A stretch of 64,000 nucleotides of DNA from Nitrososphaerales archaeon (GTDB lineage Archaea; Thermoproteota; Nitrososphaeria; Nitrososphaerales; UBA213), in NCBI GenBank assembly GCA_965197925.1, contig CBDAOC010000016.1, positions 64,001 through 128,000 of the forward strand. Reading direction: 5' to 3'. Below, piece after piece: positions 40,350-62,322 of this stretch. Each line of letters begins with the position of its first letter. Position 1 is the first letter of the stretch. Below the pieces are notes generated by a model. The model saw only the letters and a list, made by a program, of their open reading frames with translations. It ran no database searches and was not told the origin of the DNA. The position numbers and the translations under genes are program-made.

Positions 40350-40351
40350 AA

Positions 40352-41155: not shown

Positions 41156-41610
41156 TATAAATTATCCTTATTCTCTAAAATTAAAGATGCCAAAGTCTCA
41201 TGTGCATATCCATTTCTATTTACCGCATGAGGACGTAGTAATAAAACATCCTCAATATTCTTCCAATCTGGACGCAATAATACTCTATGAAATCCCTCAG
41301 AAACTTCACTCTCTATACACACTAAACATATCCACAACTCAGAACACTTTCGAATAACAGTCCTAGAACCACAACCAGAACATTCTGTACTCCAGACACC
41401 ACGAACAACATCTGCTACAGTAGTAACATACGACATTATAGGTTCCATAGTTTCCATATTAAACGGAAATAGAGATAACTTATCACCTAACGTATAACTT
41501 AAATAATGCACATACCCCACATCAGTAGTTATATCAAAATCTAAACTAACCCATGCTTGCGCTGCAAACATACTAATAAAATCATGAATACATTTTTTAT
41601 TAACAGACAT
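41155..41610 (-). CDS. Cys-motif tail-associated hypothetical protein
   Basis: CSGC...CLVC, LLLRP...RN...ETLASL..EN. Confidence 0.55.
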   Translation of the reverse strand: MSVNKKCIHDFISMFAAQAWVSLDFDITTDVGYVHYLSYTLGDKLSLFPFNMETMEPIMSYVTTVADVVRGVWSTECSGCGSRTVIRKCSELWICLVCIESEVSEGFHRVLLRPDWKNIEDVLLLRPHAVNRNGYAHETLASLILENKDNL

Positions 41611-44600: not shown

Positions 44601-45938
44601 ATAAGGAACTCCATCAACTTCAGTTGAAGAACCAAAATGACGTCTAGCTCTAATACGCACATAATACGTAGTTTCAACATCTAGACTAGAAATCTCATAA
44701 AACTCTACAGGATTAATTGAAGCATCTAAAAACTCTATTAAATCTTCATCATCTCCTAAATCAGCTATACTTTCAGCCCACTGAATTTCATAATCATCAG
44801 CATGAAGAACAGCGAACCAATCCAACGCAATAACATCATGACTAGATGAAAACCTAATATCAGTGACTTGACCTGGAGTTGGTGGTCGATCAACACGCAA
44901 TTTAGCTGTAAGAGAACCAGTTTCTGAAAACTCGGCTTCTAGTTTTACATCAGGAATCACACGCAAAGTAGCACTAATACTACCATCTTCAGATAAATTA
45001 GCACCAAGATCCACATTTGCAGGCCCTACTAACGTAGTAGATAAAACGGGAACAGTAGTCTCAGAAGGACGACCTCTACGTCTAGCTACTATAGTAAAAC
45101 TATATTCCTTTGCATATTGTAAAGGGATAGACTCTAAATCAGCATTTACTGCATGACTAATACGTTCCGATGTAGTTTCCCGATCCTGAACATGTACCTC
45201 GGTACCAATACTAGCAGAATCATCAGTTCGAAAGAACTCGATAGTATAACTATCTACGTCTAATTCAATAGATTCATCCCAACTAAGATCAAATCCAACA
45301 GTTCGACGACTAGGCGGATTAACATAAATAGGTGTTACAGTAAAACCCGTAACAGGAAGTGGTGGATCCAGATTATCTACATTACCGAAAGCAGTAATAG
45401 AATCTGTTTCAGAAAGCCTAGCAGACAAAGAAACAGAAGGTGGAAAACTTACAGAAATACTACCAGAAATAAAACCAGTTTCAGATAGCTCAGCTTCGAG
45501 TTGATCTGGAGCTAAAGCAACAGTATCACGAATTTCTATAGTAGTAGAAACACTTGAATTATAGTTAGTGACTATATCTGCCATCACTGCAACAGTATCT
45601 GAATCAGTAACCGTCCAAGAGTATGGTTCAGACATATCTACAAATGATAATCTAATTACATATGTACCATGAGTAATCTCGACATACCCATTAGTATGTA
45701 CAGCATCTGTAAAAGACTGTTCAGCAGGACTAAAAAATTCAGAAGTAGTACTACTCAACCCAAGAGTAAAAGCACCGCCAGCAAAAATACCTAAACGAGA
45801 AATATACGCCGTACCACCATCTTCTAAAAGATCAGATAAAACGGGACCCACATACGGAAATGGATCCCATATAACACTCATAGCAACAGAATTTACCGTT
45901 ACATCCGTTGCGGGAAATGTACCTATCCAAGATGCCAT
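41610..45938 (-). CDS. Large tail tip/hub protein with Fn3 domains
   Basis: About five Fn3 repeats in the N-terminal half; C-terminal half has VFTG.V, L..AD W and FYEN..GELVF hub-like motifs; lies downstream of the TMP. Confidence 0.75.
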   Translation of the reverse strand: MASWIGTFPATDVTVNSVAMSVIWDPFPYVGPVLSDLLEDGGTAYISRLGIFAGGAFTLGLSSTTSEFFSPAEQSFTDAVHTNGYVEITHGTYVIRLSFVDMSEPYSWTVTDSDTVAVMADIVTNYNSSVSTTIEIRDTVALAPDQLEAELSETGFISGSISVSFPPSVSLSARLSETDSITAFGNVDNLDPPLPVTGFTVTPIYVNPPSRRTVGFDLSWDESIELDVDSYTIEFFRTDDSASIGTEVHVQDRETTSERISHAVNADLESIPLQYAKEYSFTIVARRRGRPSETTVPVLSTTLVGPANVDLGANLSEDGSISATLRVIPDVKLEAEFSETGSLTAKLRVDRPPTPGQVTDIRFSSSHDVIALDWFAVLHADDYEIQWAESIADLGDDEDLIEFLDASINPVEFYEISSLDVETTYYVRIRARRHFGSSTEVDGVPYPNSVVGIWSSVLTVTTLVEAPGRISNLTATVNLSRHVVLEWDAPSDGGDVGSYRIERRIGTSGAPEATFDSSGSIVTYTDVTSAHDFDSDISYNYIVFAVNVSGNGGSRELDVTVSPSTPGQVIGVVVVAYSDTRLDVSWSSVLHADDYRIQWRVDGDVFDSTNQHDQSVPDTTHSITSLSADTEYFIQVTALRDDAENGLVSAEVSVATYAHSTPNQVDNLSGSVFSHLAIDLSWDAVNDPVSTDDIDVKYVVEYRRLGLSGDYSSVLVNSITYRLGNLSSDTSYSIRVYAIYEGSADGDRSEVIIVRTDEEDALDSIYHVLSSSEDVVATMPIVHVGTREIREIDDGSTQALHFTNDDGRDSSMQLYITTYAHEDIIADTIATITADTLSIIFSKYTDGVKIQEGSNDRWVWILNNDYINIPLVLKIHRVVDNISNIEIDLFNGVSGELIVADTKPSGNSISFDDDALSCETSEDVSRLYYVTDNDVQVWYGGIPSFVYKSDAVVALEASVVRGRDSQRQLTPPRVPAMRCKIWDHEATEDGSSGIYYTRPYVSGTEVSLLGMLPGGECKAVFTGVVDTVGYKFNQNLFTYTINALGMTSRLTRDKLYSEVLSDSSVAKALRKVLSAADWGDGFSLTDSQFSTILSYWWLSGETGWQAIQRLVNTEGPPSTFYENNLGELVFFGTGRTAASLDRKTIGDPSVYPDSFALIGNVQEQSEVEYVVNHAELDVVEYIEPEEDDEIWRRNIEFRILPGATYDLTATFSGPVIDYLGNAEPSFMSTLDSLSVSYIIEELSATRAVMRFDNSASSQVARVRNVIIRGRALEIGAKIQVTSDGIENTISTVSDSETDHGSREWPGNVYPTIAVDRGTQLVRNIVQNYHEGVDTFFVRIYGDTSSKLSELLLLDDTLALENEGIGNTEEDRDGRLLFFTDDIDSGNRAFPGGFAYLRKYRHRWEGGFYYVELELESRSLDFFGVLPFIIGGSTLDSGAGYSA

Positions 45939-45944
45939 AGTATA

Positions 45945-46310
45945 TTAACTCCAAGCAGTACTAGCTATAGCTACACGCGCATAATCATTTCCTGATAACT
46001 CATTAGATCCATCAGTTCCCGGATCCGCACTATGCAAAGAAATATATCTCGTACCTGAAATATAACCATTTAATGCTTGTTGCGCACCAGCAACTGTAAA
46101 ATCATCATTACTAATTTCAACAACTAACATAGTTGCTGCAAATGAAACAGTTGCACCATCAGTAGGTGCATCTACGTCATTAGATAAACCTACACGGCCT
46201 AAAAATGTACCACCAGTAGCTGCTGTCCAAATACCCACAAAAGTTGGATCAGCCCAATCATCCGAAGGTACAGGAAAAGTCACTGCCGATGTATTTGAAT
46301 AACTTGCCAT
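45945..46310 (-). CDS. Small virion structural protein
   Basis: VTFP....W....GIWTAATGG and YISLHSADPG..G..E.SG..YARVA motifs typical of phage tail proteins. Confidence 0.7.
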   Translation of the reverse strand: MASYSNTSAVTFPVPSDDWADPTFVGIWTAATGGTFLGRVGLSNDVDAPTDGATVSFAATMLVVEISNDDFTVAGAQQALNGYISGTRYISLHSADPGTDGSNELSGNDYARVAIASTAWS

Positions 46311-46325: not shown

Positions 46326-49300
46326 TTATAGCGCACCACGTCCTGAACGCAATGCTAATTCTTGTGCTTCTAGTATAACATTAACTACCTCTTCTCCGCC
46401 CATTTCAAGACTTACGTGATTTTCAAGAAGAAGTACACCATCACCAGAAGCATTAACACTATCCATATAACTATCAGTAGCACCAGACATACCTATAATC
46501 ATAGAAGGTACAGACGCGAGCATATCCTTAATTGGTTGTAGCATAATTTCACTAGCAGTCCCCGTCATAGACTTCATAGAATCTGCAGATCTAGCAAACG
46601 CTTCAGCAAAAATACCAGGAACTTTACTAAGAGGAAGAATAGCTTCACCTTCACCCATTTCAGCGACATTCAAAGCTACACCACCAGAAGTAGGTAATGC
46701 AAAACCACCTTGCCAAGTATCTTGACCAGTATCTATACCTTGCGCATCTGTAGTACCAATATTAGGATCACCAGGTTGCGCACCAGGTGTTGTTCCACCG
46801 CCTGGGCCACCACCACCTGGGCCACCACCGCCTGGGCCACCACCACCTGGGCCACCACCACCTGGGCCACCACCACCTGGGCCACCACCGCCTGGGCCAC
46901 CACCACCTGGGCCACCACCACCTGGGCCACCACCACCTGGGCCACCACCACCTGGGCCACCACCGCCTGGGCCACCACCGCCTGGGCCACCACCACCTGG
47001 GCCACCACCGCCTCCACCTCTACTTCCTGAAGACGAATACGTAGTATGTACACTAATATTTATAGTTTTATCCTTTAACCTATCATAAACATCAGCAATA
47101 TCATCAAACACATTCTGAACATCATGACTCGCAGACAACAAACTATCAGAGCCATTAACTCTATTCTTCAAGCCTATAATAGCATTATATACATCTTCAT
47201 TTAATGTATCAAATAGAGTATCAACCTTCGATTGGACCTCAATTCCAAATGCAGAGGCTATACTATTATCCCCACCACCAATACTTCTAGTAAGACCCAC
47301 AATAGAATTGTACACATCTTCATTCAAAACATTGAACAAATTGTTAACCTTTGATTGCACATCAATTTCGAATGCCGACGCCAAACTATTGTCTGCTCCA
47401 CCAATACTTCTAGTAAGACCCACAATAGAATTGTACACATCTTCATTCAAAACATTGAACAAACTATCAACCTTTGACTGAACTTCAATTCCAAATGCAG
47501 AAGCTATACTATTGTCTCCACCACCAATACTACTAATAAGACCAACAATAGAATTATACACATCTTCATTTAAAGAATTGAACAAGTTAGTAACCTTCGA
47601 TTGCACATCAATTTCAAATGCAGAGGCTATACTATTATCTCCACTACCAATACTTGAAATAAGATTAACAATAGAATTGTGCATATCTTCATTTAATGTA
47701 TCAAATAAACTGTCAACCTTTGACTGAACTTCAATTCCAAATGCAGAAGCTATACTATTTTCTTCTCCGCCAATATTTAATTGTGTCTCTTCAATTTTAG
47801 AATTAAGTGTATCAATATCACTATAGATTTGATTCAATCCTGATACAACAGACTCCTCACTACCCATAAATGCCCCAGCAACACCTTCCGCAGCTTCTTG
47901 TACACTATTAATATCTGTAATTAATTGACCAAAATCAATACCAAAAGCACCACCAGATACGCGAGGATTGCCACCTAAATCACCACCAAACATAATACTA
48001 TTCCACATAGAACTATCAAGACCGCCTCCACTAGAACCTTGGCCGCCTCCACTAGAACCTTGACTAGCTCCTCCACTAGAACTAGAAAATCCAGGAATAC
48101 CACCAGGACCAAAAATATCTTCTGGAGTAAGGTCAAGACCGGCCATTTCCGCTACTATACTAAGGTATATAGCATCCGCCGCTTTCTTTGAAATAGTAGC
48201 TGAATCCATATCATCAGTTATACTATTAGACAAATCTTCCCAGAGTTTTTCAGCACCGTCTACACCTACCGCTTGAATAGATGCAAATAATTGTGCAAAC
48301 CCTATACCCATATCAGACGGATCCATTTTACTAATTACATCTCTATACGCTTTTATAATAGAGTCCAATGATAAACCTGCTGCCGCAGCACGCAAAACAT
48401 CTTCAAGTATATCCACCAAAGTACTTGAATCTATTTTCTCAGTAGGTAACAAATCTTTAATACTCTGACCAATATCAACAGGGTCTCCACCCATTAAAGC
48501 TAACTCATATGCAGCTTCCAACAACGCAACCAATTTTTCAGTAGAAATATCTGTAGGTAATAATGCTTTAATACTCTCAGTTATATTTACAGGATCTCCA
48601 CCTACAATAGCAATTTCATACGCTGATAATAGAATAGATTCTATTTGCGCAGCTGTAGTGTCGTCTGGCAACAATACTAATATACTACTTGCAATATCTA
48701 CAGGATCGCCATCTACTATAGCTACTTCATAAGCACTGATAAGAATTTTCTCTAATGCCTCACCATCTAACTTATCCGGAAGAATATTCAACAAATTTTC
48801 AGTAATACTACCACTATCTACTCCTTCCGCAGCAGCTAGAAAAGCTGCTTCCAACACTGATACTAAACCAGCATTAGACAACTTATCAGGAAGTATATCC
48901 ATCAACTTAGCACTAAGTTCCTCTACATCCACACCCGCCATCAATGCTGTAAAAGCTGCTTCAAATACCTTCTCAAAATCAATAGCAGACATATCATCAG
49001 GTAGAAGTCCCTTTAAGAACGCCTCTAAGTCTAATTTTGCCTCTTCCTGAACATCAGGAAATGCTATAGGAGCGCCTTCAAACAATTTGACACGACCAGT
49101 ATCACCAAATGTTTCGTATTGCTCAACCATCTGACCAGTAGCAACATCATAAACAGTTTCCATAGTACCATGTTTAATTTCATCAGGTACATCACGTTTA
49201 TCAGCTTGAGGATCTTTTTGATCCCATACTCCATCAATATATGTATACCATTTATCTCCCTTACGCTTTTGTTCTACCTTTCGTGTTATATCTTCAGTAA

Positions 49301-52300
49301 CAGTTATTCTCCCTTCACTGCCGCCAGACTCATCGAATCCATATGTAGCACCACCAACTTGCCACACACCGCTACCAGGAGACTTAGCGCCTGACAAAGG
49401 ATCAACCTCATAAGCGCGATCAGTCTGTTCTGCAGATCTCTGTCCAGGAACAAGAATACTACTTCCTGTACCCATCTGCTTTAATGCCTCAACAAAACCT
49501 GATGGAAGGTTCTCTAATGTACGACGAAACTCTACTTCACCGGCAGCATTACGACGCAAATTAGCATTACTAAACTCAGGATCAAATTCCAAACCACTAA
49601 ATTCACGAGCAGCATTTTCTCCCGCAGATATAACTGATGCAAACATATCTCTAAACAATTCAGTTACTAAATCTAACTCACTCTTAATAGCACCACTAGC
49701 AATACCAGCCTCTAGACTATCTTCAAATGGAGAAATTACTGCACCATATCTATCAGACATATCTTGCAACATCGTAGCCGCGCCATCAGGAGCATCAGAA
49801 AGTCTAGTGCCTCGACCTACCTCAAATCTCTCAACAGCTAAGTCGACCATACTTTGCTCAAACCCACCAGTAAACAAATCCTGCCCACCAGTAAGACCAG
49901 CCATAGCCCATGTAGAAGGATCTTTACGTAGATTTTGTCCAGCAACAGCATATTGCATAGACATACCAAACATATCTTCCGCACCACCAACACCGCTCAT
50001 ACGACCAACAGCACCTAAAATACTACGCAATACAGTTTGATCCTCAAGTTTACCGAAACTAGTCTCGACCATATCAGATGTAACATCTTTGGCAAATGGA
50101 TCGAAATATGACGCTGTTTGACGTACACGTGCACCAGCCATCCCAACAGCAGCACGTCTATCTGCTTCTTTAGCTTCATACTCTAACCTATCTATATTTC
50201 TAGATACATACCCTTCAGTAACAAATCCCTTAAACATTTCGCGACGATCATAAACACCTGTTCCACCGAACAACTCATCATCGTACTGAGCAGTAGTTAA
50301 TCTTTCAGCTTCAAATGCCGCTAGTTTTTCACCGGCTTCCACAGATGCTGCATAGTATGAAGCCTTATCACCAACTGTAGATACACCTAATCCTTCGCGT
50401 AAAGCTTGTTCATCTTTACCCATCATTGTTATAGCTTCACGATAGCCACGTTCACGTAACTTAGCAATATCCTCAGCCAAACGATCATATTGTGTACCAA
50501 ACATTTGCACAGGTTGTGTAGTGCCATACAACTTTTCTGATAATTCAGAAGGCATTGTAGAAAGAAGCCCTTCACCTATATCAATACCAGCACGAGTACC
50601 TTGTAACTCATAACGCTCAGCAGCAGCAAGTGTCTGCTCTCTTGCTCTACTACCAAGACGCATAGCTGCTTCTCTAATAGGCTCATGTTCAGGAGCATCA
50701 CCATATACAGCAGAAAGTAACGCAGCATCACCAACAAGTCTTTGATTAGGCCCAAGCATATCTGCAAACTGAGCAGGATCTGGTAGACCACCTTGAATAC
50801 CAGCAACATCTAAAGCGGCCACAATAGAATCTAAACTAACCAATTCAGGCATCTTACCTATCATAGAATCCATAGTAGACATTTGACGAGGAAGATCAAA
50901 ATCCCCTGTACCTACAGGTATACGAGCATATTGTTCAAAATCAATACCACGCATACTAGGAGTCAGTCCAGCAAGCACAGACGCAGGGACACCTGCATAC
51001 CGTGCCTCTCTCATTAACGTTTGTTCAGCAATAGATAACTGACGAACATCAACATCAGCACCCCAACCACGACTAGTAAAGAATTCATTAAACAAACCTT
51101 CACCCCGAGCCTCTGCTGTAGCCGCTGTAGCAGCCTGTGCAAATGATTCAGGTTCTGCACGTGTCCAACCAGTAGCTTGAAGATAGTCTTGAATTCTAAT
51201 AGCTTCTCCAGATTCAGTAGCACCAAAAATATCTACAACACTACGCGCTTCTGGATCTCTTGAATCCTCACCAAACGCAGCTTGTCCTTTAATATCAAAG
51301 AACAATCTATCTTGAGATGCAAACTGTTCCATAAATCCCGCAGCAATAGCATTAGCAATAGGCCCACCAACTTCATAATGCTCAGGTGCATCGACACCTT
51401 CAACACGGAACCTTTCTGTCATTAAACGCAAAGCATCATTAAACGCTGTAACATCAGCATCACCAGTAGTAGGATCAATAGTATGCTCTAAAGCACGCAT
51501 AGCAACTGGCTGACCATATGCATCAACACTACGACCCAAAACAGTAGGATCAGCTGCACCTGTAATAGGATCAATACCTCTAGTATCAAACGGTGTAGTA
51601 AGCTGTCTAACAGTGTCCGCATCGACCATCCACACATCTTCCATACGAGGTCTAATTACACCTGACTCAAATGCTCCTGGTGGAACCATTTGTGCAGGCA
51701 TAGGATCACCTTTTACAATATCAGCTCCTGGAATAGGTGAATCATAAGTATACTGTTCACCAAAAACAGCTTCATTTATCTTAGGTCTTGTATGATAATA
51801 CTCAGTATCATCACCAGGAAGTCTAAAGATAGCTTGAGATCTAATCTTTTCTAGAGATACATCTATAGCATCTTGTCCATAAATACGACTATAAGGAACT
51901 TCACTTACATCTTGTGGCTTAATTTGTGCAAGCATATCTCGCGCCATAGTAAACACACCACTAGATGTATCAAAACCAGTAGCCCAATCAGGCATTTGCT
52001 GTGGAGTATCAAATGGAGTCCAGTCTAGAGAACGATCTACAGCTGCCTTACTTTCTGCCAATTGCTGTTGCCAGAAATTCATATTAAGAGCATTACCACC
52101 AAACTCAGCAAATTCAGTAGCTCCTGTTCCAACAAAAGCCATCTTAGACCCTTCACCAAAAGTACCACTTGCCTGTAATTCAGCGTCCATAGCAGACGCT
52201 AGACGCAAAGCTTCTCCCATACCTTTATTAGAAGCAGAGATTTGATAAATACTATCACCTATAGATGCCTCTAAACCACCTAAAATACGAGCAACATCAT

Positions 52301-55300
52301 GCATAGCACTAGCAATATCCGCCAATTCCTCTGCACTGGATACACCACCTTCACTAGCCAAATTACTAAATATATCAGCAAGCACACTTTTGTCTAGAGG
52401 AATAATTGCCTCATCATATCCAGCCTCACCAGCATTAATTAATGTACCGCCTGAATTCGCAGGAATTACACCACCCTCCTGCATTTGAGGAACAGATAAT
52501 GGATTAGTCAACTTAAGACTATCATACTCATTAGCAGCATTACGCAAAGTATCTGTTACACGTGATGAAGGTTCACTTAAGTCATACTTAGGAACTTCCG
52601 GAATCTTAATCCAATCTTGACCCTCTGAAGGTCTAACGTAACGTACAGGCTTCTTCCAGAATTCCAAATGTCTCAAGTAAGCATGTAGAACAGCCATCAT
52701 AGATGTATCCGCACTTTCAAACTTAGAATACTCATGCCATCCTGGTCTATAATTTTCATACTCATAGTCTTCACGACTCAAAGCTGCAAATGGCTGTATA
52801 TTTTCCTCTCCCCAATCTCTAGCCCATTCTGGACTTCCTTGCCAATCATAATCTTTACCATACTGAGAACGCAATCCCATCTGCAATGCTTGCCAAGATG
52901 TAGCACGACGAGGATCCTCTTCAATAGAGCGTCCACGGATACCTTGTGCAGCCTGTCTAGAAACTACACGTCTCAAACCAGGAGATAAACTTCTAGCAGC
53001 AAAACCAGCATTCTCTCTGCTAGAGCCTTGACGTACATACCCAGAGTAAGCCTGCATATCCTTAATAATAGTATTCCACTGTCCAGAATCAGACAACTGC
53101 TTCAACTGCGCTAAGTTACGACGAAGATTACGATCTTCAATAACTTCAAACGCACCGGAACGAACTTGCTCCCACTGCTCATCAGTAAGCACAGCATTTA
53201 CACCAGAATACAAACGTTGCTGCTCTGGTTCCAAAGAACCCCAATCATCTTGGAAAGTAGCTGAGAATGGAGTACCTTGTCTATCCCAAGGCATTTGAAT
53301 AGTACTTGGAAGATCAGATGCCCAACGAGATGGTGGAGCAGCTGCTAACTTAGCCACTAACCATGGATGAATAGATGGTGGAGCAGTTATCCATGGACGA
53401 TTAACATGCATGAACTCTTCATTCATAGGCTCAAATGTAGCACCACGAGTACCACTAATTCTTTCCATTTCACGCTTATTGTAATCACGAGCATAAGCAC
53501 GGCGTGGCCCAACTGCATACTCTCCAATATAAGGAATGGGCAATCTACCAATAAGTGGAATTGCTTGTATACCCGGGAAACTACGTGAAAGCAATGGAAG
53601 CTGGAACATTTCCATTTGCTCTTGACGACGTGCTGCTTCAGCATTAAACAAATCTAATGTATTATACCCAGAACCAAATTCACTGCCAAATTCACGACGA
53701 CGTCTTTCTTCCCAAATAGCACCTTCCGCACCAGCAGCACCAAGAATACCAGCTTGTGCAAGTAGTAATGGACGAGCCAAACCTCTAGTTGGCAGCCAAC
53801 TTCTCCAATCAGTACTTCTACGCCACTCTTCAGGATCTATAATACTTCCACCCATACGACCTTTAAGCATATCCCCACGAAGTTCCATTCTATTTCGTCC
53901 AGAACTCACATCCAATTCTCTAGTCCAAGGTGTATTTATACCCCAACCAACACGTCCTCCAGTTCTACGCACTGGTGAACCAGTCTCTATACCAAGTGTC
54001 ATAGCATATATTTTACGACCTAAATTATCTCCCCAATCCATACGACCGAACGACTTCGCAGTTGGTATATCAGCCATGAAAGCTTCACGACGTTCAATAT
54101 CACGACGAACCTGTCTCTTCTGTTCATCAGTTAACAAATCAAAGTCTATATCAATGTCGATACGTCCATCACCACCACGCGCACGATTTCTAGTCATCAA
54201 CTCCTCATAGTTAGGCATATCTCTAGTAATCTTCATAAATGGAAGAATTTGATCAGCAATACGTCTCTGAGATTCAGCACTCAAACCACGACGATTAGCT
54301 TCATTGATTAATTGATTCGCATCACGACTCAAACGACTCAAATGAGTTTCATATTGTTCCAAACGCTTAGGATCCTCTAGATTTGCAGTAATCTTCTTTA
54401 GGCCAATCTCACGACCACGGACTTTCTGATTCCACAAATCCTTCATAAGCATGCTGAAGTAGTTACCATACTGCACAGTACCTTCATCATTGGTACGACG
54501 GTACAATTCATCATTATCGCCAACTTCGTCTAGTCTACGATATAGACGCTCATACAATTCAGGATTATCACCCTTAAGTGCACGCAAGAACACATTAAAA
54601 TCTCCACGATCACGCAATGCACGCAAACGCGCTGGCCCAACACCAGTCTGATTAGTAATAATACGTTCAGCTAACTCAGCATATCCACCACCCTCACGTA
54701 AAGTTCTATGCATAGAAAGTTGAAGAATTTCTCCCTGCTTTGCACCACTAAATCTAGCTAATGACGCAGGAGAATCATATAGTCTACCAATATTTCTACC
54801 AGCCATCCACCAACCTGTCATGAATGGCAAACCAGAGATACCAGCAGAAATAGCTGTACCCATAACATCCATACCAGAACGTGAATACACACCAGGTAGC
54901 TGCATAATACGAGCGAACTGACCTACATCGGTATTCTGAATAAATTGCTCAGTAATACCGCCACGAACCAACTCACCAGATGTATCAGAACGAATTTCTC
55001 CACGTAGTCTATTTCCTGAACTAGAACCCGCAACAAATCTAGCACCTCGTCCAATACCTCTTCCAACTCTTCCAGCAGGAATCATACCCATACCACGACC
55101 AATACCACGTCCCGCAGCACCAAAAGTACGACCAGACAAAGCAGTCAATTGCGTACCACCCCACTGCATACCTCTCATAGCAGCAGACAATACTCCCGGA
55201 GCACCACTACTCGCTGTACGGCGACCCCATGCCTGAAGCAAAGGCATACGTGTCGCACGATTACCAGCCCTATTTGCTTGCTTAATAAGCTCAATATACT

Positions 55301-58300
55301 CTTGTCCAGTCTCCGCCATCATAGGGTCGATTTCGTCGGCAAACTCCATTCCCATAGTCGGATCTCGTAATCTAGCATCATTAACATCTGGTAGAAAATC
55401 ATAGTAAGAAGCAACGGGCTGCATACCCAAATCATCCCAAGATCTGCCTACTACATCCTGCGCACCAAATCTACCAAACTGTTCTGGTAGCATACCAGAA
55501 AGAATATTCCATAATGCTCCTGTCTGCTCTACATCCAGCCTATTATAAAGATCCATAACAAACTGCAAATCCTTATTATTAGGATCTCTATACATTCTTT
55601 CCATTAGCTCACCCGCAGGAACTTCAAGCTCACCACGAGATAAACCAAGCATCTCAGTAATACTACCAGGGCCCTTCAATGGCAACTGACGCAAAGCATT
55701 ACCCCAGAAACGACGCACACGATCTTCAATAGCTTGAGGACTAAGAACACCACCTTCCAATTTACCACTAACCCAAGTATCCTCTTCCTTAGTAGCAGCA
55801 CGCACCATACCACGTCCACCTAGTCCAGCTGCTTCACCACCCTTACGCAAATCCCAAACTACTTTACCTTCAAAATTAACTCCAAAATTACGAGCAGTTA
55901 AATCTAAGTCGTGAGATACATTGTATCCAACAACATCCGTTACACTACCAACAATATCATTAAGTACACCAGCTTTAACATCATTTAATGATAGAGCAAT
56001 ATGTTCCACACTTCCATCATCGTTAATAATCTGTGCACCCCAGTAACCAACGTTAGCACGTTCACGGCCACGAACAAGTTTCTTATAGTCGTTTTCTACG
56101 TCAAAAATAAGAATACGACGACGCTTCATAGCATGAAGACGAAGTTGCTCAGGGGTAAGATCACGATCCAAAGATCCACGTACACTTTGTAGCATTCCAC
56201 TAGGAGATACAGTAGTCTTTTGAACATCTAAAATGCCCTCTGGAGCCTCTAAACCACGAGCTAAACCTTCCCAATCAAATCCTGATAATGTAGGATCCTG
56301 AATAATCTCACTCAGTGTACGGCCACCAATTATTCTTCTAGTAATCTCCTCAGCTTGAGACCACTCATCAATACCCAACCGTCCTACACCAAATAGCCCC
56401 GACTCATATAAACTAGTCTGACCAACTGTAGCACCTATTGAACCTTGGTAACGCAATGGCCCAGCAGCTTCTGCAATAGCACCCATCTGTACATCTTGAA
56501 TTTCTTGAAGAGCTTTGAACTCTCCCTTAATCATCTCACCAATATGATAGGCCGCACCACTAGCACTTTGCTGACGACGTACTACATATTCTTTAGCTTG
56601 TTTAACTCCAGCAGCAATACCACCACCAAACTCCAAACGTAATGCAGGTTGAAAGTCATCAAATGACTCAAAATAAGACTCATATGCACTTCTATCTAGA
56701 AGTTCTAAAATCTCATCAGAAATAGCAGTATTAAAACCTTTACGACGACCAGCACTAGACTCGGATACAGCTACTTGCATAAGAGCAGCAGCATAATCTT
56801 GAGGCATATACCCTTGATTAACGGCCTCACGTAAACCTTGATTTACGACATCAGATTGAGCAGTAGTAAGTTTATCACCCTCTACAACACCAGCATATAA
56901 AGGACTACGATAACGATTATGCAATCCACTAGACATTGTAGTAGCACGACGAGCTATCTGTAGCAAACGTGTATCTAATTGCTTAGTCATAGCACTACGT
57001 GAACCCTGGAATAGAATGCTCTGAACATTTTCAAAGACACGGGATTCCAACAGTGCATCCTTACGAACATTAGCAATATCTAAACTAGTATATTCATAAC
57101 GAACACCAGCAGCTATAGGAGAACTAACTTCAGACAAGTATTCTTCAAAGTCACGCTTCAACCATGGATACTCTTCAATCAAATGCTTATCCAAAGAACG
57201 GCGTGGATTCGCCTCTAACCACTGTCTAATTTCATTCTTAATAGCCTTTTCAGCTACAACAGAAGAACCTCTAAATCTTGTTAAAGCATCAAGAACATCA
57301 GAGAAAACACCACCAGCAATATCGCTATCAACACCAGAATGCGTTAGCAATCTCATGTAAACATCAATTTTACCAATGTTACCTTTCTCACGATTGAACT
57401 GAGTAATTCTACGAATATTAGTTGGCCCATGCTCAGTTAGTCTCAATGGACTACCACTCATAGGAAGATCAGTAGGATTAAATCCAACATTACGTGCTTG
57501 TCCACTACGTACATCACCAAAATTCCATCTAACTAATTGATTACCAGTTTGAATCTCTGTATTTGTTACATCTATAGCTTCGATACGTGTAGTTTTAGTA
57601 AATTTATCAGCATCAACTTTACTTATTCTACGAACAAGACCAGCACCTACGCCTTGAGGATCTCTACCAATAGGAAGAAAATATTCCCACTGTTTACGAT
57701 TATTCATACTCTTTAGTAAAAATGTCAAAGCATGGTCATCAGCATCAGAACCCTCTGTACCACGAATAAATTCCCATGTAGCAACATCTTTTTCATGCGG
57801 AGCAAGACCAATATATCTACCACTATCATCGAAAATAAGTTTTACATGATCTTGGCTTTCATAAGTTCCTTTGGTAAAAAATTCAGCTGGAAGCAGACGC
57901 CCATACACAGCCTGCAAAGCTCCAGATGGTGCCATACCAGTACCACCCCGAGCAACGGCCTTACCTACAGTAGAACTATACAAACGAAATCTTGATGTAG
58001 CATACGCGCCTCTCTTCATAGCTGCAGACATAAATGGATTTTCCTGAGAATACCTTTCAGAAATCTCATCATAATACGACATTGCAAACTCTTCATCATA
58101 ATTAAATGACTGACCCTCATCTAATCTACGACTCATTTCACGTTGTGTACGTAATTGTGCAATAGTTTGCATCTCTGCTTCTGATGGTTGATCATTAGCA
58201 AACATAGAACGAACACGTTGCCATTCAGCTCTACGCATACCACGATACGCAGGCTTAATAATTCTCTTTACAAGATCACGACCCATTATACTTTCAAGCC

Positions 58301-61034
58301 ACTTCATTTGCTGCATAGAGTTAATAATTCTATAGTTACTAGAATCATTACGCGGAGCATCAGGCTTAAATAATATTCGAACAGCACCTACAGTAGGTCT
58401 ATATCCAGTCTTCAAAGAAGCTGTAGATCCAATAATATCCAAAGGTTTAGAACCAGAACCAGAAATAAGAATATTACGATCAATCAAATACTGTTCCATA
58501 GCTGCAAAATGAGCATCAGATACTACTTGTACATCAGCTTTATGAAAACCACCATGCATAGTATGCGTCAGTGCAAATGTAAATTGCTCATCATCTTTTA
58601 ACGTATCATCAATATATTTAGTTATACTTCTCTGAGCTGCAACATCCGCTTGAACACCACCACTAGCCTTTTGGTTCTGATAAGCATTAAATAATTTTGA
58701 TCTAAATGTAGACATAGACATAATAGCACTGGCATCAGTATATGAACCAGTCATAATGTTTCCACTAGAATCTAAACGCCTAAAACTATAGCCAGCTTCA
58801 AGGTTATCCTTCATCCACTTAGTTCTAGAAGCATCATCAGGCAATTTATTAAATGCAGACATAGTAGGATGATAGTAGTCTATAACCTTCTCTTCACCCT
58901 TAGCATTAGCTATGGAAACATATTTCTTAGGCTTTACTAGTCCAACACGCAAACTAAGATCGTCCATAACAATATCCATATGTCTACTGCTATCCAGCTT
59001 AGGAAGTGTACGTGTACGACCTTGTAAATCAGCTACACGTGCTAAACCACCACGCTTACCAAGCAAGTCCAATAGTAACTTAGAAGTATTAGACGATCTA
59101 TCGTTAACATCAATATCAATACCTACTGACTTCCAAAAACTAAAGAACCCTTCACGTGACTTATCACTAGTTACTACAACAGCTAAATCATCACCCGGAC
59201 CAAGTCCGTATCCATCTTCAATAACAAGATTAGAACGCTTCAACCAAGATAAGAACTGATTAACATTACGATCCTTACCACTAAAGTTAACAATAGCTCT
59301 AAAATTATTATCCTGAACTTGTGATAGTGCAGCAGCTTGTGGCTTTCCTGTAAGAGTACGGGACATATCCATAAAATTACCCTCTGCTGTAAATGCAGCA
59401 TCAGAAGTAACAATAGATGATACTCCAGTACGAGGATTCGCCATACCACTTATAAAGTTTTCACGAGATACTTCATCTGCAATCTTTGCAGTAGCAGCGC
59501 GCATACGATCACTAATTACATTAGGATCACGAACAACTTGCGCACCAGCAGCTTGCACTCTATAAGCAGTTGAATGCTGATATAGCTGAGAACGTATATC
59601 TCTAATTCCTACACCACGCATTGGCTGACGTTTACGATATGTACTTTCCAACTCACTTAAAGCATCGGCCAAGAAATTACGATTAGGGTCATTCATAGGA
59701 GTACGCGCTAAAGTAGTTCTTAGATTATTTATACTACCAAGTATTTGCTTACCTTCCTCTGTCCACGCACGTGACGCTTGTGAATAGCTTTCAGCAGTAG
59801 ATAGCACATCTTCTGTAGGTAATTGCTCTCTAATAAGCCTCATGGCACGAGGCATAACAAATTCTTCATGCTGTGCCCGAGTAACAGCTCCACCTTTAGT
59901 AACATACATTTGTGTAGCAATATCTTCAGCCATACGTCTAAATACAGCAGGCTGCTCCCGTTCTAAACCAGGAACATAAAAACCTTGCTGTTGTAAACGA
60001 GTACGTGCCAATCTAGCATATGTCATAGACCCTTGGACACCGGGGAACGCAAACTCATCTGACCCACGAAACTGTGCATCCAATGGAGATAATTCAGCAC
60101 GTCTAAACGCTGTCTCTCTATATCTATCTATGATACCTTGTTGCTGAACACGTGATGACGCAGCAGTTTCTTCCACAGTACGTGGAGATATACCAAATTC
60201 ACGACCAAGAATATCTTGTGCACGACGACGTAATCCAGGAGCAACCAAAGGATCTACACTTCTACGGAATGCTGTACCAACACCTCTAGCAGCAGGCCCA
60301 AAAACAGCTCTACCAGCACCAGCCAATAACAAATCTGAACCTATATCTAATCCAAGCAAACTCGTTTCCCCAATTGTAAGCCTACTACCGCCTGGCCCGT
60401 ATGGACTACCAGTTTCCGCAATAGTAAATGGAAGGGAAGAAGCTGCACCAATAGCACCACTAGCTAACAATCCACCAGTAGTTCCAAGAATACCACCACC
60501 GATAGCTCCAGCAGTAATAGGTGCCGCAGCCATCGCAAATGGAGCCGCAGCTAGAGAACTGTATATAATGTTACGCTTCATGGCAGACTCAGATAGAGCA
60601 ACATCATGGAACATAGTAGCACTATACTGAGTTGGAGTAACACCTAAACTACGAGCACGTGACTGTGCCTGTAACATAGGACGCACAGTAGCCGGAATAG
60701 CAGACGGAGCATTAGCACCAATAACAGAGTACATAATACCCATAAATGCAGCTTCACGCTGTTCAGAAGTCATACCTTCTACAATTTGTCTATTACGCTC
60801 TTGACTACCAGCAAACGCACCAGTTCCTATAGGCGTACTAAACCAACCACCAATTGCCCCAAAATTACGTCCCCAGAAACCCGGTTCACTTTGAGGCGGT
60901 ACATCTTCTACACCACCCTGTACAGGTGGTCTATTATACTGACGAACTGGTGTGCGATATCTATCGTCAAAACGACTCAAGGGATTCGGAATCCCTTGAG
61001 CCGAGAAATCTAACATTAAGTTTGGTGATACCAT
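46326..61034 (-). CDS. Giant tape measure protein (4902 aa) with putative N-terminal two-barrel RNA polymerase and DEDDy exonuclease domains
   Basis: Directly follows the frameshifting tail chaperone; TMP-type helical repeats and GE.G.EAI.PL motifs; polymerase- and exonuclease-like motifs detailed in findings. Confidence 0.85.
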   Translation of the reverse strand: MVSPNLMLDFSAQGIPNPLSRFDDRYRTPVRQYNRPPVQGGVEDVPPQSEPGFWGRNFGAIGGWFSTPIGTGAFAGSQERNRQIVEGMTSEQREAAFMGIMYSVIGANAPSAIPATVRPMLQAQSRARSLGVTPTQYSATMFHDVALSESAMKRNIIYSSLAAAPFAMAAAPITAGAIGGGILGTTGGLLASGAIGAASSLPFTIAETGSPYGPGGSRLTIGETSLLGLDIGSDLLLAGAGRAVFGPAARGVGTAFRRSVDPLVAPGLRRRAQDILGREFGISPRTVEETAASSRVQQQGIIDRYRETAFRRAELSPLDAQFRGSDEFAFPGVQGSMTYARLARTRLQQQGFYVPGLEREQPAVFRRMAEDIATQMYVTKGGAVTRAQHEEFVMPRAMRLIREQLPTEDVLSTAESYSQASRAWTEEGKQILGSINNLRTTLARTPMNDPNRNFLADALSELESTYRKRQPMRGVGIRDIRSQLYQHSTAYRVQAAGAQVVRDPNVISDRMRAATAKIADEVSRENFISGMANPRTGVSSIVTSDAAFTAEGNFMDMSRTLTGKPQAAALSQVQDNNFRAIVNFSGKDRNVNQFLSWLKRSNLVIEDGYGLGPGDDLAVVVTSDKSREGFFSFWKSVGIDIDVNDRSSNTSKLLLDLLGKRGGLARVADLQGRTRTLPKLDSSRHMDIVMDDLSLRVGLVKPKKYVSIANAKGEEKVIDYYHPTMSAFNKLPDDASRTKWMKDNLEAGYSFRRLDSSGNIMTGSYTDASAIMSMSTFRSKLFNAYQNQKASGGVQADVAAQRSITKYIDDTLKDDEQFTFALTHTMHGGFHKADVQVVSDAHFAAMEQYLIDRNILISGSGSKPLDIIGSTASLKTGYRPTVGAVRILFKPDAPRNDSSNYRIINSMQQMKWLESIMGRDLVKRIIKPAYRGMRRAEWQRVRSMFANDQPSEAEMQTIAQLRTQREMSRRLDEGQSFNYDEEFAMSYYDEISERYSQENPFMSAAMKRGAYATSRFRLYSSTVGKAVARGGTGMAPSGALQAVYGRLLPAEFFTKGTYESQDHVKLIFDDSGRYIGLAPHEKDVATWEFIRGTEGSDADDHALTFLLKSMNNRKQWEYFLPIGRDPQGVGAGLVRRISKVDADKFTKTTRIEAIDVTNTEIQTGNQLVRWNFGDVRSGQARNVGFNPTDLPMSGSPLRLTEHGPTNIRRITQFNREKGNIGKIDVYMRLLTHSGVDSDIAGGVFSDVLDALTRFRGSSVVAEKAIKNEIRQWLEANPRRSLDKHLIEEYPWLKRDFEEYLSEVSSPIAAGVRYEYTSLDIANVRKDALLESRVFENVQSILFQGSRSAMTKQLDTRLLQIARRATTMSSGLHNRYRSPLYAGVVEGDKLTTAQSDVVNQGLREAVNQGYMPQDYAAALMQVAVSESSAGRRKGFNTAISDEILELLDRSAYESYFESFDDFQPALRLEFGGGIAAGVKQAKEYVVRRQQSASGAAYHIGEMIKGEFKALQEIQDVQMGAIAEAAGPLRYQGSIGATVGQTSLYESGLFGVGRLGIDEWSQAEEITRRIIGGRTLSEIIQDPTLSGFDWEGLARGLEAPEGILDVQKTTVSPSGMLQSVRGSLDRDLTPEQLRLHAMKRRRILIFDVENDYKKLVRGRERANVGYWGAQIINDDGSVEHIALSLNDVKAGVLNDIVGSVTDVVGYNVSHDLDLTARNFGVNFEGKVVWDLRKGGEAAGLGGRGMVRAATKEEDTWVSGKLEGGVLSPQAIEDRVRRFWGNALRQLPLKGPGSITEMLGLSRGELEVPAGELMERMYRDPNNKDLQFVMDLYNRLDVEQTGALWNILSGMLPEQFGRFGAQDVVGRSWDDLGMQPVASYYDFLPDVNDARLRDPTMGMEFADEIDPMMAETGQEYIELIKQANRAGNRATRMPLLQAWGRRTASSGAPGVLSAAMRGMQWGGTQLTALSGRTFGAAGRGIGRGMGMIPAGRVGRGIGRGARFVAGSSSGNRLRGEIRSDTSGELVRGGITEQFIQNTDVGQFARIMQLPGVYSRSGMDVMGTAISAGISGLPFMTGWWMAGRNIGRLYDSPASLARFSGAKQGEILQLSMHRTLREGGGYAELAERIITNQTGVGPARLRALRDRGDFNVFLRALKGDNPELYERLYRRLDEVGDNDELYRRTNDEGTVQYGNYFSMLMKDLWNQKVRGREIGLKKITANLEDPKRLEQYETHLSRLSRDANQLINEANRRGLSAESQRRIADQILPFMKITRDMPNYEELMTRNRARGGDGRIDIDIDFDLLTDEQKRQVRRDIERREAFMADIPTAKSFGRMDWGDNLGRKIYAMTLGIETGSPVRRTGGRVGWGINTPWTRELDVSSGRNRMELRGDMLKGRMGGSIIDPEEWRRSTDWRSWLPTRGLARPLLLAQAGILGAAGAEGAIWEERRRREFGSEFGSGYNTLDLFNAEAARRQEQMEMFQLPLLSRSFPGIQAIPLIGRLPIPYIGEYAVGPRRAYARDYNKREMERISGTRGATFEPMNEEFMHVNRPWITAPPSIHPWLVAKLAAAPPSRWASDLPSTIQMPWDRQGTPFSATFQDDWGSLEPEQQRLYSGVNAVLTDEQWEQVRSGAFEVIEDRNLRRNLAQLKQLSDSGQWNTIIKDMQAYSGYVRQGSSRENAGFAARSLSPGLRRVVSRQAAQGIRGRSIEEDPRRATSWQALQMGLRSQYGKDYDWQGSPEWARDWGEENIQPFAALSREDYEYENYRPGWHEYSKFESADTSMMAVLHAYLRHLEFWKKPVRYVRPSEGQDWIKIPEVPKYDLSEPSSRVTDTLRNAANEYDSLKLTNPLSVPQMQEGGVIPANSGGTLINAGEAGYDEAIIPLDKSVLADIFSNLASEGGVSSAEELADIASAMHDVARILGGLEASIGDSIYQISASNKGMGEALRLASAMDAELQASGTFGEGSKMAFVGTGATEFAEFGGNALNMNFWQQQLAESKAAVDRSLDWTPFDTPQQMPDWATGFDTSSGVFTMARDMLAQIKPQDVSEVPYSRIYGQDAIDVSLEKIRSQAIFRLPGDDTEYYHTRPKINEAVFGEQYTYDSPIPGADIVKGDPMPAQMVPPGAFESGVIRPRMEDVWMVDADTVRQLTTPFDTRGIDPITGAADPTVLGRSVDAYGQPVAMRALEHTIDPTTGDADVTAFNDALRLMTERFRVEGVDAPEHYEVGGPIANAIAAGFMEQFASQDRLFFDIKGQAAFGEDSRDPEARSVVDIFGATESGEAIRIQDYLQATGWTRAEPESFAQAATAATAEARGEGLFNEFFTSRGWGADVDVRQLSIAEQTLMREARYAGVPASVLAGLTPSMRGIDFEQYARIPVGTGDFDLPRQMSTMDSMIGKMPELVSLDSIVAALDVAGIQGGLPDPAQFADMLGPNQRLVGDAALLSAVYGDAPEHEPIREAAMRLGSRAREQTLAAAERYELQGTRAGIDIGEGLLSTMPSELSEKLYGTTQPVQMFGTQYDRLAEDIAKLRERGYREAITMMGKDEQALREGLGVSTVGDKASYYAASVEAGEKLAAFEAERLTTAQYDDELFGGTGVYDRREMFKGFVTEGYVSRNIDRLEYEAKEADRRAAVGMAGARVRQTASYFDPFAKDVTSDMVETSFGKLEDQTVLRSILGAVGRMSGVGGAEDMFGMSMQYAVAGQNLRKDPSTWAMAGLTGGQDLFTGGFEQSMVDLAVERFEVGRGTRLSDAPDGAATMLQDMSDRYGAVISPFEDSLEAGIASGAIKSELDLVTELFRDMFASVISAGENAAREFSGLEFDPEFSNANLRRNAAGEVEFRRTLENLPSGFVEALKQMGTGSSILVPGQRSAEQTDRAYEVDPLSGAKSPGSGVWQVGGATYGFDESGGSEGRITVTEDITRKVEQKRKGDKWYTYIDGVWDQKDPQADKRDVPDEIKHGTMETVYDVATGQMVEQYETFGDTGRVKLFEGAPIAFPDVQEEAKLDLEAFLKGLLPDDMSAIDFEKVFEAAFTALMAGVDVEELSAKLMDILPDKLSNAGLVSVLEAAFLAAAEGVDSGSITENLLNILPDKLDGEALEKILISAYEVAIVDGDPVDIASSILVLLPDDTTAAQIESILLSAYEIAIVGGDPVNITESIKALLPTDISTEKLVALLEAAYELALMGGDPVDIGQSIKDLLPTEKIDSSTLVDILEDVLRAAAAGLSLDSIIKAYRDVISKMDPSDMGIGFAQLFASIQAVGVDGAEKLWEDLSNSITDDMDSATISKKAADAIYLSIVAEMAGLDLTPEDIFGPGGIPGFSSSSGGASQGSSGGGQGSSGGGLDSSMWNSIMFGGDLGGNPRVSGGAFGIDFGQLITDINSVQEAAEGVAGAFMGSEESVVSGLNQIYSDIDTLNSKIEETQLNIGGEENSIASAFGIEVQSKVDSLFDTLNEDMHNSIVNLISSIGSGDNSIASAFEIDVQSKVTNLFNSLNEDVYNSIVGLISSIGGGDNSIASAFGIEVQSKVDSLFNVLNEDVYNSIVGLTRSIGGADNSLASAFEIDVQSKVNNLFNVLNEDVYNSIVGLTRSIGGGDNSIASAFGIEVQSKVDTLFDTLNEDVYNAIIGLKNRVNGSDSLLSASHDVQNVFDDIADVYDRLKDKTINISVHTTYSSSGSRGGGGGGPGGGGPGGGGPGGGGPGGGGPGGGGPGGGGPGGGGPGGGGPGGGGPGGGGPGGGGPGGGGPGGGGPGGGTTPGAQPGDPNIGTTDAQGIDTGQDTWQGGFALPTSGGVALNVAEMGEGEAILPLSKVPGIFAEAFARSADSMKSMTGTASEIMLQPIKDMLASVPSMIIGMSGATDSYMDSVNASGDGVLLLENHVSLEMGGEEVVNVILEAQELALRSGRGAL
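46801..47010 (-). repeat. 14 x 15-bp tandem repeat encoding (GGGGP)n
   Basis: Unit CCTGGGCCACCACC(A/G) on the + strand. Confidence 0.95.
47160..47774 (-). repeat. 5 x 123-bp (41-aa) tandem repeat in TMP
   Basis: IGG.DNSIASAF.I.VQSKV..LF..LNED.YN.I.GL unit. Confidence 0.9.
48380..49010 (-). repeat. About 6 x 37-aa helical repeat in TMP
   Basis: LP.D.....L...L.AA...A..G.D...I....L unit. Confidence 0.8.
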
Positions 61035-61052: not shown

Positions 61053-61364
61053 CTAGCTGAACAATTTGAACACATCATTAATTTGTTGAGTAAGTTCTTT
61101 CTTAGACTTGGCCTTATTACTTCTACTACGACGCTTAGGTATAAAGTCCTCTTCACCTTTAGCGGGCTGACCTTTACTTCTACTTTGATTAGACATAAGG
61201 GCCATTATACGCCCGAACCGTCTATTCTCTTTTTCATCCTCGTCACCTTGGGCTTCGCTCAACGCTTGAAATTCCACCCAACATAATGACCAAAAATCGT
61301 AATCACTAAGCCGCAAACTTACTCTTGCGAAACCCCAGAGTTTTAACCAGTCGAGGCCTTTTTG
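61053..61364 (-). CDS. Tail assembly chaperone frameshift extension (gpT-like)
   Basis: -1 frame open from the slippery site: KGLDWLKLWGFARVSLRLSDYDFWSL..EF. Confidence 0.8.
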   Translation of the reverse strand, partial: QKGLDWLKLWGFARVSLRLSDYDFWSLCWVEFQALSEAQGDEDEKENRRFGRIMALMSNQSRSKGQPAKGEEDFIPKRRSRSNKAKSKKELTQQINDVFKLFS

Positions 61365-61735
61365 CGGCTCTTCGCCTGTGGCTTTGTGGGCTCCGTAACC
61401 ACTTCCCCCTCAGAAGATTGACCAAATGCTCGCTCATTCTCCTGACCAATCATAGTACTTAACTCTATACTCAATTTAACCAAATCACCAGGATTACAGT
61501 TACTCATAATATAACTCCAATCCTCTTCTGGATGATGAGTAAGACCAGTACATTGGATCAAAGAGCGAATATGATCTTCATTCCACACATCATCTGTTGT
61601 AGGAAGAAGATCTTCACGAGCCAATTGAGCGATATGATTCATAGTAGCAAGATTATATACAAACGTATACATCTTACCATCAAATTCAAACTCAACCATA
61701 GGTACTTTAGTTGCATGTATCTTATTAGTTGCCAT
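61343..61735 (-). CDS. Tail assembly chaperone (gpG-like)
   Basis: Between tail tube and TMP, ends at slippery C-AAA-AAG. Confidence 0.8.
   Translation of the reverse strand: MATNKIHATKVPMVEFEFDGKMYTFVYNLATMNHIAQLAREDLLPTTDDVWNEDHIRSLIQCTGLTHHPEEDWSYIMSNCNPGDLVKLSIELSTMIGQENERAFGQSSEGEVVTEPTKPQAKSRKKASTG
61358..61364 (-). promoter_or_regulatory. -1 programmed ribosomal frameshift site CAAAAAG
   Basis: In-frame CGC AAA AAG; a -1 shift joins the gpT-like ORF. Confidence 0.75.
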
Positions 61736-61743
61736 TATTTAAC

Positions 61744-62322
61744 CTAACTTATTTCATAAGAATATGTTGTATCGGAATCAGAAACATCAGGCCATAAACC
61801 ATCTGCAACAGTTAGACCAGTAGTAGTCGTTACTTTACCAGTTACTTTGATACTAACATTCCCTATTATTATACCACCCGCACTATGAGAAGTCGATAAA
61901 CCCAATACATAGCCATCAAAATTCCAACTCCAACTACTAGGATTAGTATTATCTTCAGTTTCAGCTTCAGGAATCACTAACATAAACTTTTCCTTAGTAT
62001 CATTTGTATAACTTTCTAATAGTAACCTATGTGAACCTAAACTAGAATTAAACAAAACACTTAATGTAACACTCCCAGGATCTTTATATCCTGGAATTAC
62101 TTGCTTCCAAGATCCAGGAATCGCAGGTGTAACATCATGAAAAGTCTTTGTCATACTAGGCGAAGATACATCTACAATTTGCGCAACAGGAAGCCAGTCA
62201 GGAGTAACTGTAGTTCCTTCTACAGTCTCTATTTCAATATCATCCCTATTAGAAACAAGGAGTAGAACTCCATGAGAATCTACTCCTTGTGTCGCAGGAT
62301 ATAACCCTGCATATGTTGTCAT
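61744..62322 (-). CDS. Tail tube (major tail) protein
   Basis: DVT....WKQ.IPG.KDPGSV, W.FDGYV, IKVTGK pattern of siphoviral tail tube proteins. Confidence 0.8.
   Translation of the reverse strand: MTTYAGLYPATQGVDSHGVLLLVSNRDDIEIETVEGTTVTPDWLPVAQIVDVSSPSMTKTFHDVTPAIPGSWKQVIPGYKDPGSVTLSVLFNSSLGSHRLLLESYTNDTKEKFMLVIPEAETEDNTNPSSWSWNFDGYVLGLSTSHSAGGIIIGNVSIKVTGKVTTTTGLTVADGLWPDVSDSDTTYSYEIS

Follow-up and report, generated by a model that had tools for sequence, protein, structure and literature searches.

Does the giant tape measure gene of this phage encode, in its N-terminal part, an RNA polymerase carried inside the virion, and if so, how is its active site built? The window, a stretch of 64,000 nucleotides, corresponds to positions 64001-128000 of contig C16 (CBDAOC010000016.1) of assembly GCA_965197925.1. 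C16 is a phage contig of 150,385 bp with 28 tRNA genes, whose ends do not overlap. It contains terminase, portal and major head genes, a tail block and a replication set of its own (PolA, beta clamp, primase, helicase and ligase), and an archaeal-type RNA polymerase is encoded in the rest of the assembly, outside C16. Since the genes of the phage are of a bacterial-looking type and none of 60 related host genomes contained a match to the tape measure protein (TMP), the contig was likely misbinned in an archaeal assembly.

Several further genes of this phage are worth recording. A Ro60/TROVE RNA-binding protein (window 225-1889, plus strand) is encoded on this contig with its 28 tRNA genes, and a ribonucleotide reductase gene (window 8842-10614, minus strand) lies on the opposite strand within a plus-strand block. 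The phage also carries a class I tRNA synthetase gene (Tyr/Trp) as well as three PcfJ-like genes (C16 20835-21956, 29945-31914 and 49105-50799). In a 1185-aa helicase (window 28331-31888, plus strand) a long stretch, possibly an insertion, separates the ATPase motifs. The genes for NADAR and nicotinamide phosphoribosyltransferase (window 10747-11343 and 23873-25291, plus strand) and for a Macro-SLOG-DUF4326 fusion (C16 40906-42072) form a candidate NAD/ADP-ribose counter-defence set.

The tape measure gene and its neighbours are arranged as follows.

36948..46310, minus strand: genes of the tail tip and fibres (Gp80-like and FN3-repeat proteins), downstream of the TMP gene
46326..61034, minus strand: gene of the tape measure protein (4902 aa without cysteine)
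46329..55457, minus strand: TMP residues ~1860-4902, the remainder with the ruler repeats and the C-terminal end
61053..62322, minus strand: tail tube gene and two small tail-assembly genes, upstream, fixing the TMP slot

The tail tube gene upstream matched PF16460 (E 1.3e-7), and the two small genes between it and the TMP gene are of chaperone size. The 4902-aa ORF itself had a weak match to PHROG tape measure proteins (E 0.0074). Its gene position, this weak match and the absence of cysteine, as in gp96 of Thermus phage P23-45, point to a tape measure protein. Cysteines are also absent from the homologues P0001, P0002 and P0008, and P0004 and P0005 have one each. Near the TMP C-terminus, a run of Gly-Pro pentapeptide repeats (window ~46700-47050, minus strand) follows ruler repeats of ~37 residues; a C-terminal TMP motif is present in three copies in P0001.

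To find relatives of the N-terminal part, TMP residues 601-1350 were searched exhaustively against 1.84 billion representatives, which gave 6 matches; one further homologue came from a separate protein search. Five of the homologues are long (2144-7174 aa), three of them lie on contigs of 133-152 kb, and core identity ranges from 28 to 79%. As the protein searches yielded only the named homologues, the alignments were kept at 6-7 rows, and the conservation counts for the TMP refer to a six-row alignment. Relatives were absent from the viral contigs and the metagenome contigs searched, a single match in GenBank phages had an E of 4, and the ESM Atlas gave no usable match for residues 601-1350.

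The first-pass annotation had read five motifs of the TMP as those of a two-barrel polymerase. All five were found at the residues it had named: TDASAIMS (766-773), GGFHKA (828-833), STASLK (870-875), GTEGSDADDH (1092-1101) and GRDPQ (1123-1127), with D1097-D1100 at nt 57735-57746. Their key residues are also conserved in the homologues, as the annotation had required: D767, A768, K832, S873, L874, K875, D1097, D1099, D1100, R1124 and P1126 are invariant in 6/6 sequences, as are G1045, R1046, D1224 and D1249. In GGFHKA, invariance is limited to the Lys, and the TMP copy has not kept the glycines of DGxG and GxKG. DxDD occurs only once in the whole TMP (DADD at 1097-1100), and DxDxD is absent before residue 2293. 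Invariant columns are densest at residues 1051-1200, with 27 per 150 compared to 4-20 elsewhere in the first 2250 residues, and motif conservation in the core is more than chance.

The part of the chain ahead of the acidic motif contains three features.

58995..59477, minus strand: TMP residues ~520-680, a conserved alpha/beta domain (conservation in homologues; alpha/beta in model 1), the presumed polymerase N-terminal domain
58359..58793, minus strand: TMP residues ~748-892, putative first double-psi barrel (B type) with D767, K832 and K875 (invariance; weak match of model 2 residues 17-146)
58311..58322, minus strand: N905-x-x-Q908 after the B barrel (Q908 invariant in two TMP-family alignments; NARQ in the paralogue P0012), at the position of the LNRQ motif

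Structure prediction with fold searches, which the annotation had proposed as a check, gave a divided answer: a weak double-psi match for the first barrel and none for the second (A) barrel, at pLDDT 45-48. Model 1 (TMP residues 501-1400, pLDDT 45.4) returned only noise in Foldseek and wide fold searches. For model 2 (residues 750-1300, pLDDT 47.5, pTM 0.30; the two models span pTM 0.27-0.30), 48 of the 49 rows listed by Foldseek were chains of RNA polymerase complexes, with E 0.17-1.1, none significant and the entries redundant. A wide fold search with model 2 found helical hairpins only, nothing appeared in BFVD at E <= 0.001, and the structures of gp96 and of gp64, the second P23-45 polymerase, were not among the matches listed in any fold search. 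TMP residues 766-895 (model 2 residues 17-146) aligned with double-psi barrels of five unrelated protein families at Z 2.2-3.1, all under the noise level of the tool (rmsd 3.3-7.7, 58-92 aligned residues). The partners were aspartate decarboxylase, formate dehydrogenase, nitrate reductase, the N-domain of p97, beta-prime 362-478 and a designed protein whose title names the double-psi barrel; all of them share this fold. The match is weak but convergent, and together with the invariant K832 and K875 it is consistent with a double-psi barrel B bearing two conserved lysines. The A barrel region of low-confidence model 2 matched no double-psi barrel, and both models were too poor to show the barrel pair with converging Asp and Lys residues on which the annotation's test depended. 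The two core halves folded with Mg as a complex scored 0.01, the fold of the partners being uncertain, and this speaks neither for nor against the assignment.

Two further genes of the contig encode relatives of the TMP core.

C16 42335-45187, plus strand, outside the window: P0011, a paralogue of the TMP polymerase, 950 aa
C16 146812-150126, plus strand, outside the window: P0012, the second paralogue, 1104 aa

A profile of TMP residues 1030-1160 placed P0011 first and P0012 sixth among 4429 ORFs, and a longer TMP-only profile placed them first and second. With P0011 added to the profile, P0012 reached an iE of 4e-5 and the next ORF 0.95. HHalign of the TMP family against P0011 gave a probability of 79 (E 1.6e-5, 348 columns), and of the joint alignment against P0012 a probability of 31 (E 5e-4). 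At a paralogue identity of ~21%, the B-barrel motifs of P0011 (NDGGG, IKGIF) and P0012 (GDGVGG, FLKGH, NARQ) look more canonical than those of the TMP copy; the second B-barrel Lys is missing at the aligned place in P0011. In the A barrel, P0011 has DGFDMDD followed by GRNP and P0012 has EYLDHDD followed by KEP, both then continuing with a GxL helix and a VD motif. Both proteins contain cysteines, and their genes lie outside the virion block. P0011, situated among replication genes, had no family matches and has an insertion rich in Cys and His (CxxC...C) within its A barrel hairpin, and P0012 has a Cys/His segment at its N-terminus. If the contig ends join, as we assume, P0012 would lie directly ahead of a run of small plus-strand genes. 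The searches found no relatives of either protein, and an exonuclease domain was seen in neither.

Direct comparison with known polymerases gave no significant match for the TMP core or the paralogues in PDB, Pfam or PHROGs, and HHalign against gp96, gp64 and YonO remained at E 0.14-0.69. When profiles built from the three paralogues were run, the 18 known RNAP ORFs did not come out near the top; for four blocks, their best ranks were 265, 299, 644 and 5. Toward gp96 in particular, similarity was E 0.49 with BLASTP and E 0.18 with HHalign and the TMP has no DFDGD, which places it outside the gp96 family; tblastn with gp96 in the phage collection retrieved 10 Thermus phage records only, and HHalign of gp96 against P0011 paired the RNP motifs in its best block, not significantly. 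RNAP families often have no significant similarity outside the DxDxD region (PMC10770324), which softens the missing sequence link but does not remove it.

We ranked motif blocks. Seven of them, from gp96, gp64, YonO and the archaeal-type RNAP that the assembly itself encodes, were scored at every position. At the predicted TMP residues they ranked 25, 70, 3, 1, 1, 3 and 10 of ~2237 positions (top 0.04-3.1%), in canonical order save for RxP. Rank 1 was reached by the blocks at H1080 (strand 5-helix 2) and D1097 (acid loop). The strand 3-RxP-strand 4 block, which falls on R1124 in the TMP, ranked 3, 2 and 4 in the TMP family and the two paralogues. For the bridge helix the ranks were 3/2233 (TMP family), 7/933 (P0011) and 55/1087 (P0012), for the trigger-loop base 10/2237, 1/937 and 8/1091, so that both elements follow barrel A in the TMP and the paralogues at the motif level. 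Paralogue blocks generally ranked in the top 0.1-5%, except for the P0011 DG block, whose rank of 137 was scored at G201, one residue off D200, and is not a fair test. Combined p-values from these blocks are optimistic because the positions were picked by eye. In a blind listing of the top four positions, 4/7 blocks fell on the predicted residue in the TMP and 4/7 in P0011; the DG, K1 and trigger blocks were off the predicted TMP residues.

A region that is no active polymerase, be it the scaffold of one that has lost its activity or a metal-binding enzyme of other origin with chance motifs, would agree with the lack of a significant known-polymerase match by any method, with the lost glycines of the B-barrel motifs in the TMP copies and with the uninformative models, but it has to face four acids, two lysines and RxP fixed across 28% identical sequences and ~21% identical paralogues, seven motifs recurring in one order in three proteins, and a first barrel that matches double-psi barrels, if weakly. 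We consider it improbable. The annotation's proposal of a TMP-fused two-barrel polymerase is well supported by conservation, the two paralogues, the block ranks and the weak barrel match, but lacks a significant polymerase match; a two-barrel fold of the TMP core is very probable.

The catalytic part of this core and the elements behind it are as follows.

57615..57929, minus strand: TMP residues ~1036-1140, presumed catalytic (A type) barrel (model 2 secondary structure and block ranks; topology inferred)
57795..57809, minus strand: GLAPH 1076-1080, the site that fits the b5-a2 junction best (the corresponding block ranks 1 of 2239 here; His in 5/6)
57732..57755, minus strand: acid loop E1094-G-S-D1097-A-D1099-D1100-H1101, predicted to bind Mg (motif, conservation and block rank; same pattern in both paralogues)
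57657..57665, minus strand: R1124-D-P1126, displaced RxP motif (invariant in 6/6; RNP in P0011, KEP in P0012)
57267..57422, minus strand: TMP residues ~1205-1256, presumed bridge helix (G1221, D1224) and trigger-loop base (D1249) (block ranks; model 2 helices)

In place of the canonical DxDxD signature for Mg binding, all eight sequences (six of the TMP family and the two paralogues) have an acid loop [DE]xxDxDD followed by [RK]xP. The compact DxDD loop of the first-pass annotation is invariant, but this description is incomplete because a fourth acid, E1094, belongs to the loop; the position is E or D in 6/6 TMP-family sequences and in 8/8 with the paralogues. L1103, four places after D1099, is hydrophobic in 6/6, as is the residue four places after the last Asp in the four reference families, and a register score favoured D1099 as the last Asp in both paralogues and was undecided in the TMP family. 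Under this register, E1094 would take the role of the first Asp from a position one residue ahead, leaving D1100 as an additional acid. The RxP of the TMP lies 25 residues after D1099, that is, after rather than before the acid loop, and there is no conserved RxP or KxP between residues 1030 and 1096; this order, which the annotation had pointed out, is well supported by conservation, the paralogues and the block ranks.

Model 2 (pLDDT 47.5) has strands at 1063-1068, 1074-1078, near 1107-1110, 1116-1121 and 1134-1137, and helices at 1081-1092, ahead of the acid loop, and at 1139-1149. In a double-psi barrel, strand 2 adjoins strand 5 and strand 6 adjoins strand 3. We lean toward a strand order b1-b2-b5-a2-acid loop-b6-b3-RxP-b4, i.e., a segment swap within the catalytic barrel. 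Because b2/b5 and b6/b3 are neighbours, the new order could rebuild the same barrel: b2 would hairpin straight to b5 and b3-RxP-b4 would follow b6, giving two new hairpins, and the reordered strands would leave all catalytic residues where they normally sit. A tandem duplication followed by a deletion may have produced this arrangement. The same two-barrel RNA polymerase might instead have an A barrel that is a plain circular permutation, or R1124-x-P might be a convergent look-alike. Residues 1133-1157 (strand, helix, strand) do resemble a generic half-barrel, and an alternative count of the six strands reads b1-psi-b2-a1-acid loop-b3-b4-psi-b5-a2-b6, the model being too poor to tell; yet the strand-RxP-loop-strand block ranks 3, 2 and 4 in three proteins, a conserved RxP/KxP is missing between 1030 and 1096, and the chain ends of a permuted barrel would presumably fall at a loop facing the active site. 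This explanation is possible but clearly the less probable one. That an RNA polymerase with a re-threaded barrel is present seems to us evenly balanced.

Behind the polymerase the TMP carries a second predicted enzyme.

55485..56123, minus strand: TMP residues ~1638-1850, DEDDy-type 3'-5' exonuclease (D1645, E1647, N1705, D1709, Y1830 and D1834, all six invariant in 6/6)

Its motifs are IFDVE, GYNxxxD and YxxxD, so that the four acids and the Tyr of ExoI-III (D1645, E1647, D1709, Y1830, D1834) are all present. With this stretch the ESM Atlas gave a score of 3381, above the 2300 mark; the top three matches were unnamed clusters, and the best ten with a family were all RNase_H_2/polymerase exonucleases (0.90-0.91). 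In the homologue P0005, Pfam DNA_pol_A_exo1 matched weakly (E 0.17), significant Pfam or PDB matches for the TMP exonuclease were absent, and an exonuclease profile run against the 4429 local ORFs found no exonuclease. The domain shares ExoI DxE, ExoII NxxxD and ExoIII YxxxD with DEDDy/RNase_H_2 proteins (PF13482), all invariant, and unlike those it is embedded behind a polymerase. These features mark the domain as an intact DEDDy 3'-5' exonuclease.

The exonuclease, the letters of GLAPH and the two-aspartate site of PolD opened another reading, in which the TMP-fused enzyme would be a DNA polymerase or primase of the two-barrel type that has a PolD-like two-aspartate loop, GLAPH as steric gate and a DEDDy proofreader, serving gap filling, repair or priming of the injected genome. 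PolD has the selectivity motif GLAPHT (PMC7708050), whose letters recur in GLAPH 1076-1080, and keeps two of three aspartates (PMC4996933); in one register, G1095 occupies the first Asp position of the TMP. Like archaeal PolD DP2, the TMP would combine a two-barrel core, two aligned aspartates, GLAPH ahead of the acid loop and a 3'-5' exonuclease partner, which is intact in 6/6. In PolD, the exonuclease is a separate calcineurin-like subunit and PHT stands in place of RxP, whereas in the TMP family the exonuclease lies within the chain, RxP is kept and GLAPH is not conserved. The motif varies (GLAPH, GLAPH, GAAPH, GFTAD, GFTAH, GFTLH), with APH, APH, APH, TAD, TAH and TLH at the place of PHT, is missing from both paralogues and scores best as the b5-a2 junction. 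RxP is present in 8/8, and an Arg at this motif marks rNTP selection (PMC7708050); the acid at 1094 can substitute the first Asp. The paralogues show no exonuclease domain, and with a full PolA replisome, including clamp, primase and helicase, the phage has no need of another DNA polymerase. The variable GLAPH, the conserved RxP and the missing exonuclease of the paralogues make a DNA polymerase unlikely. Likewise doubtful is a combination in which the three paralogues form a new two-barrel branch with a re-threaded barrel, the tail copy being a PolD-like DNA polymerase or primase with proofreading that enters the cell before the genome, and transcription being the task of the free copies. Three motif patterns, perhaps too strict or defeated by an interrupted gene, detected no PolD DP2 in the archaeal assembly (98.7% complete).

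The closest known system is that of P23-45, in which gp96, a TMP-fused virion RNAP (PDB 8H2M, 8H2N), and gp64, a non-virion RNAP, arose by duplication, and gp96 transcribes the first genes to enter, as found by ChIP-seq and start-site mapping (PMC10770324). Like gp96, the protein described here is a Cys-free TMP of ~5000 aa with the polymerase in its N-terminal part; as in the P23-45 enzymes, both barrels are on one chain with B before A, and a free-standing paralogue is encoded in the same genome. The bridge-helix and trigger motifs resemble those of gp64. In contrast, gp96 has DFDGD with RNP before it, and here [DE]xxDxDD precedes RxP; P23-45 has one free paralogue and this phage two; and a metallopeptidase is described for gp96 where this TMP has the DEDDy exonuclease. 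No promoter motif was found: an exact-word count over the whole contig, which would miss a degenerate motif, revealed no repeated promoter-like word. The repeats it picked up were tRNA loops, the repeats of the TMP and, at 4-5 copies, short words rich in A/T. YonO of SPbeta and RdRP-like single-subunit two-barrel RNAPs (QDE-1, phi14:2 gp66) agree with the family described here in how the DG, K, SxxK, NxxQ, bridge-helix and aVD motifs are ordered and spaced; YonO has canonical DxDGD and RxP order, no TMP fusion, and HHalign E 0.42-0.45.

We consider it most probable, at roughly three chances in four, that TMP residues ~520-1460 are a single-chain two-barrel DNA-dependent RNA polymerase carried in the virion and working like gp96. 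The B barrel would supply D767, K832 and K875, and the A barrel the Mg-binding acid loop [DE]xxDxDD. We infer that the product is RNA rather than DNA, that the TMP is ejected, and which genes are the targets: on infection, the N-terminal polymerase would be ejected with the TMP and transcribe the first phage genes entering, which probably include P0012 at the head of the small plus-strand genes, and P0012 and P0011 would take over later gene classes. The exonuclease behind the polymerase may act on transcripts, by trimming or proofreading them, or on DNA ends, by degrading or processing them.

The two paralogues, the order of [DE]xxDxDD and [RK]xP in 8 sequences and the intact DEDDy exonuclease go beyond the first-pass annotation. 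The literature searched, including PMC7824862 in its available part and few subscription papers, contained no permuted polymerase barrel and no TMP polymerase bearing an exonuclease. Within the same literature, TMP-fused virion RNAPs appear to be published for P23-45 and relatives only, and the alignment supplement of PMC10770324 may hold variant acid loops.

The active site of two-barrel RNAPs is regarded as near fixed from bacteria to humans, with DxDxD and an RxP on the preceding strand pair. If the assignment is true, a reordered barrel with a different acid loop would mean that the two-barrel core can be re-threaded, and would account for the failure of motif and profile searches to find such enzymes. 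P0011 and P0012 (950 and 1104 aa) would be small soluble proteins for testing this. Polymerase delivery by the TMP would then reach beyond Thermus phages into an unrelated lineage that has three paralogues, and an exonuclease would join the cargo.
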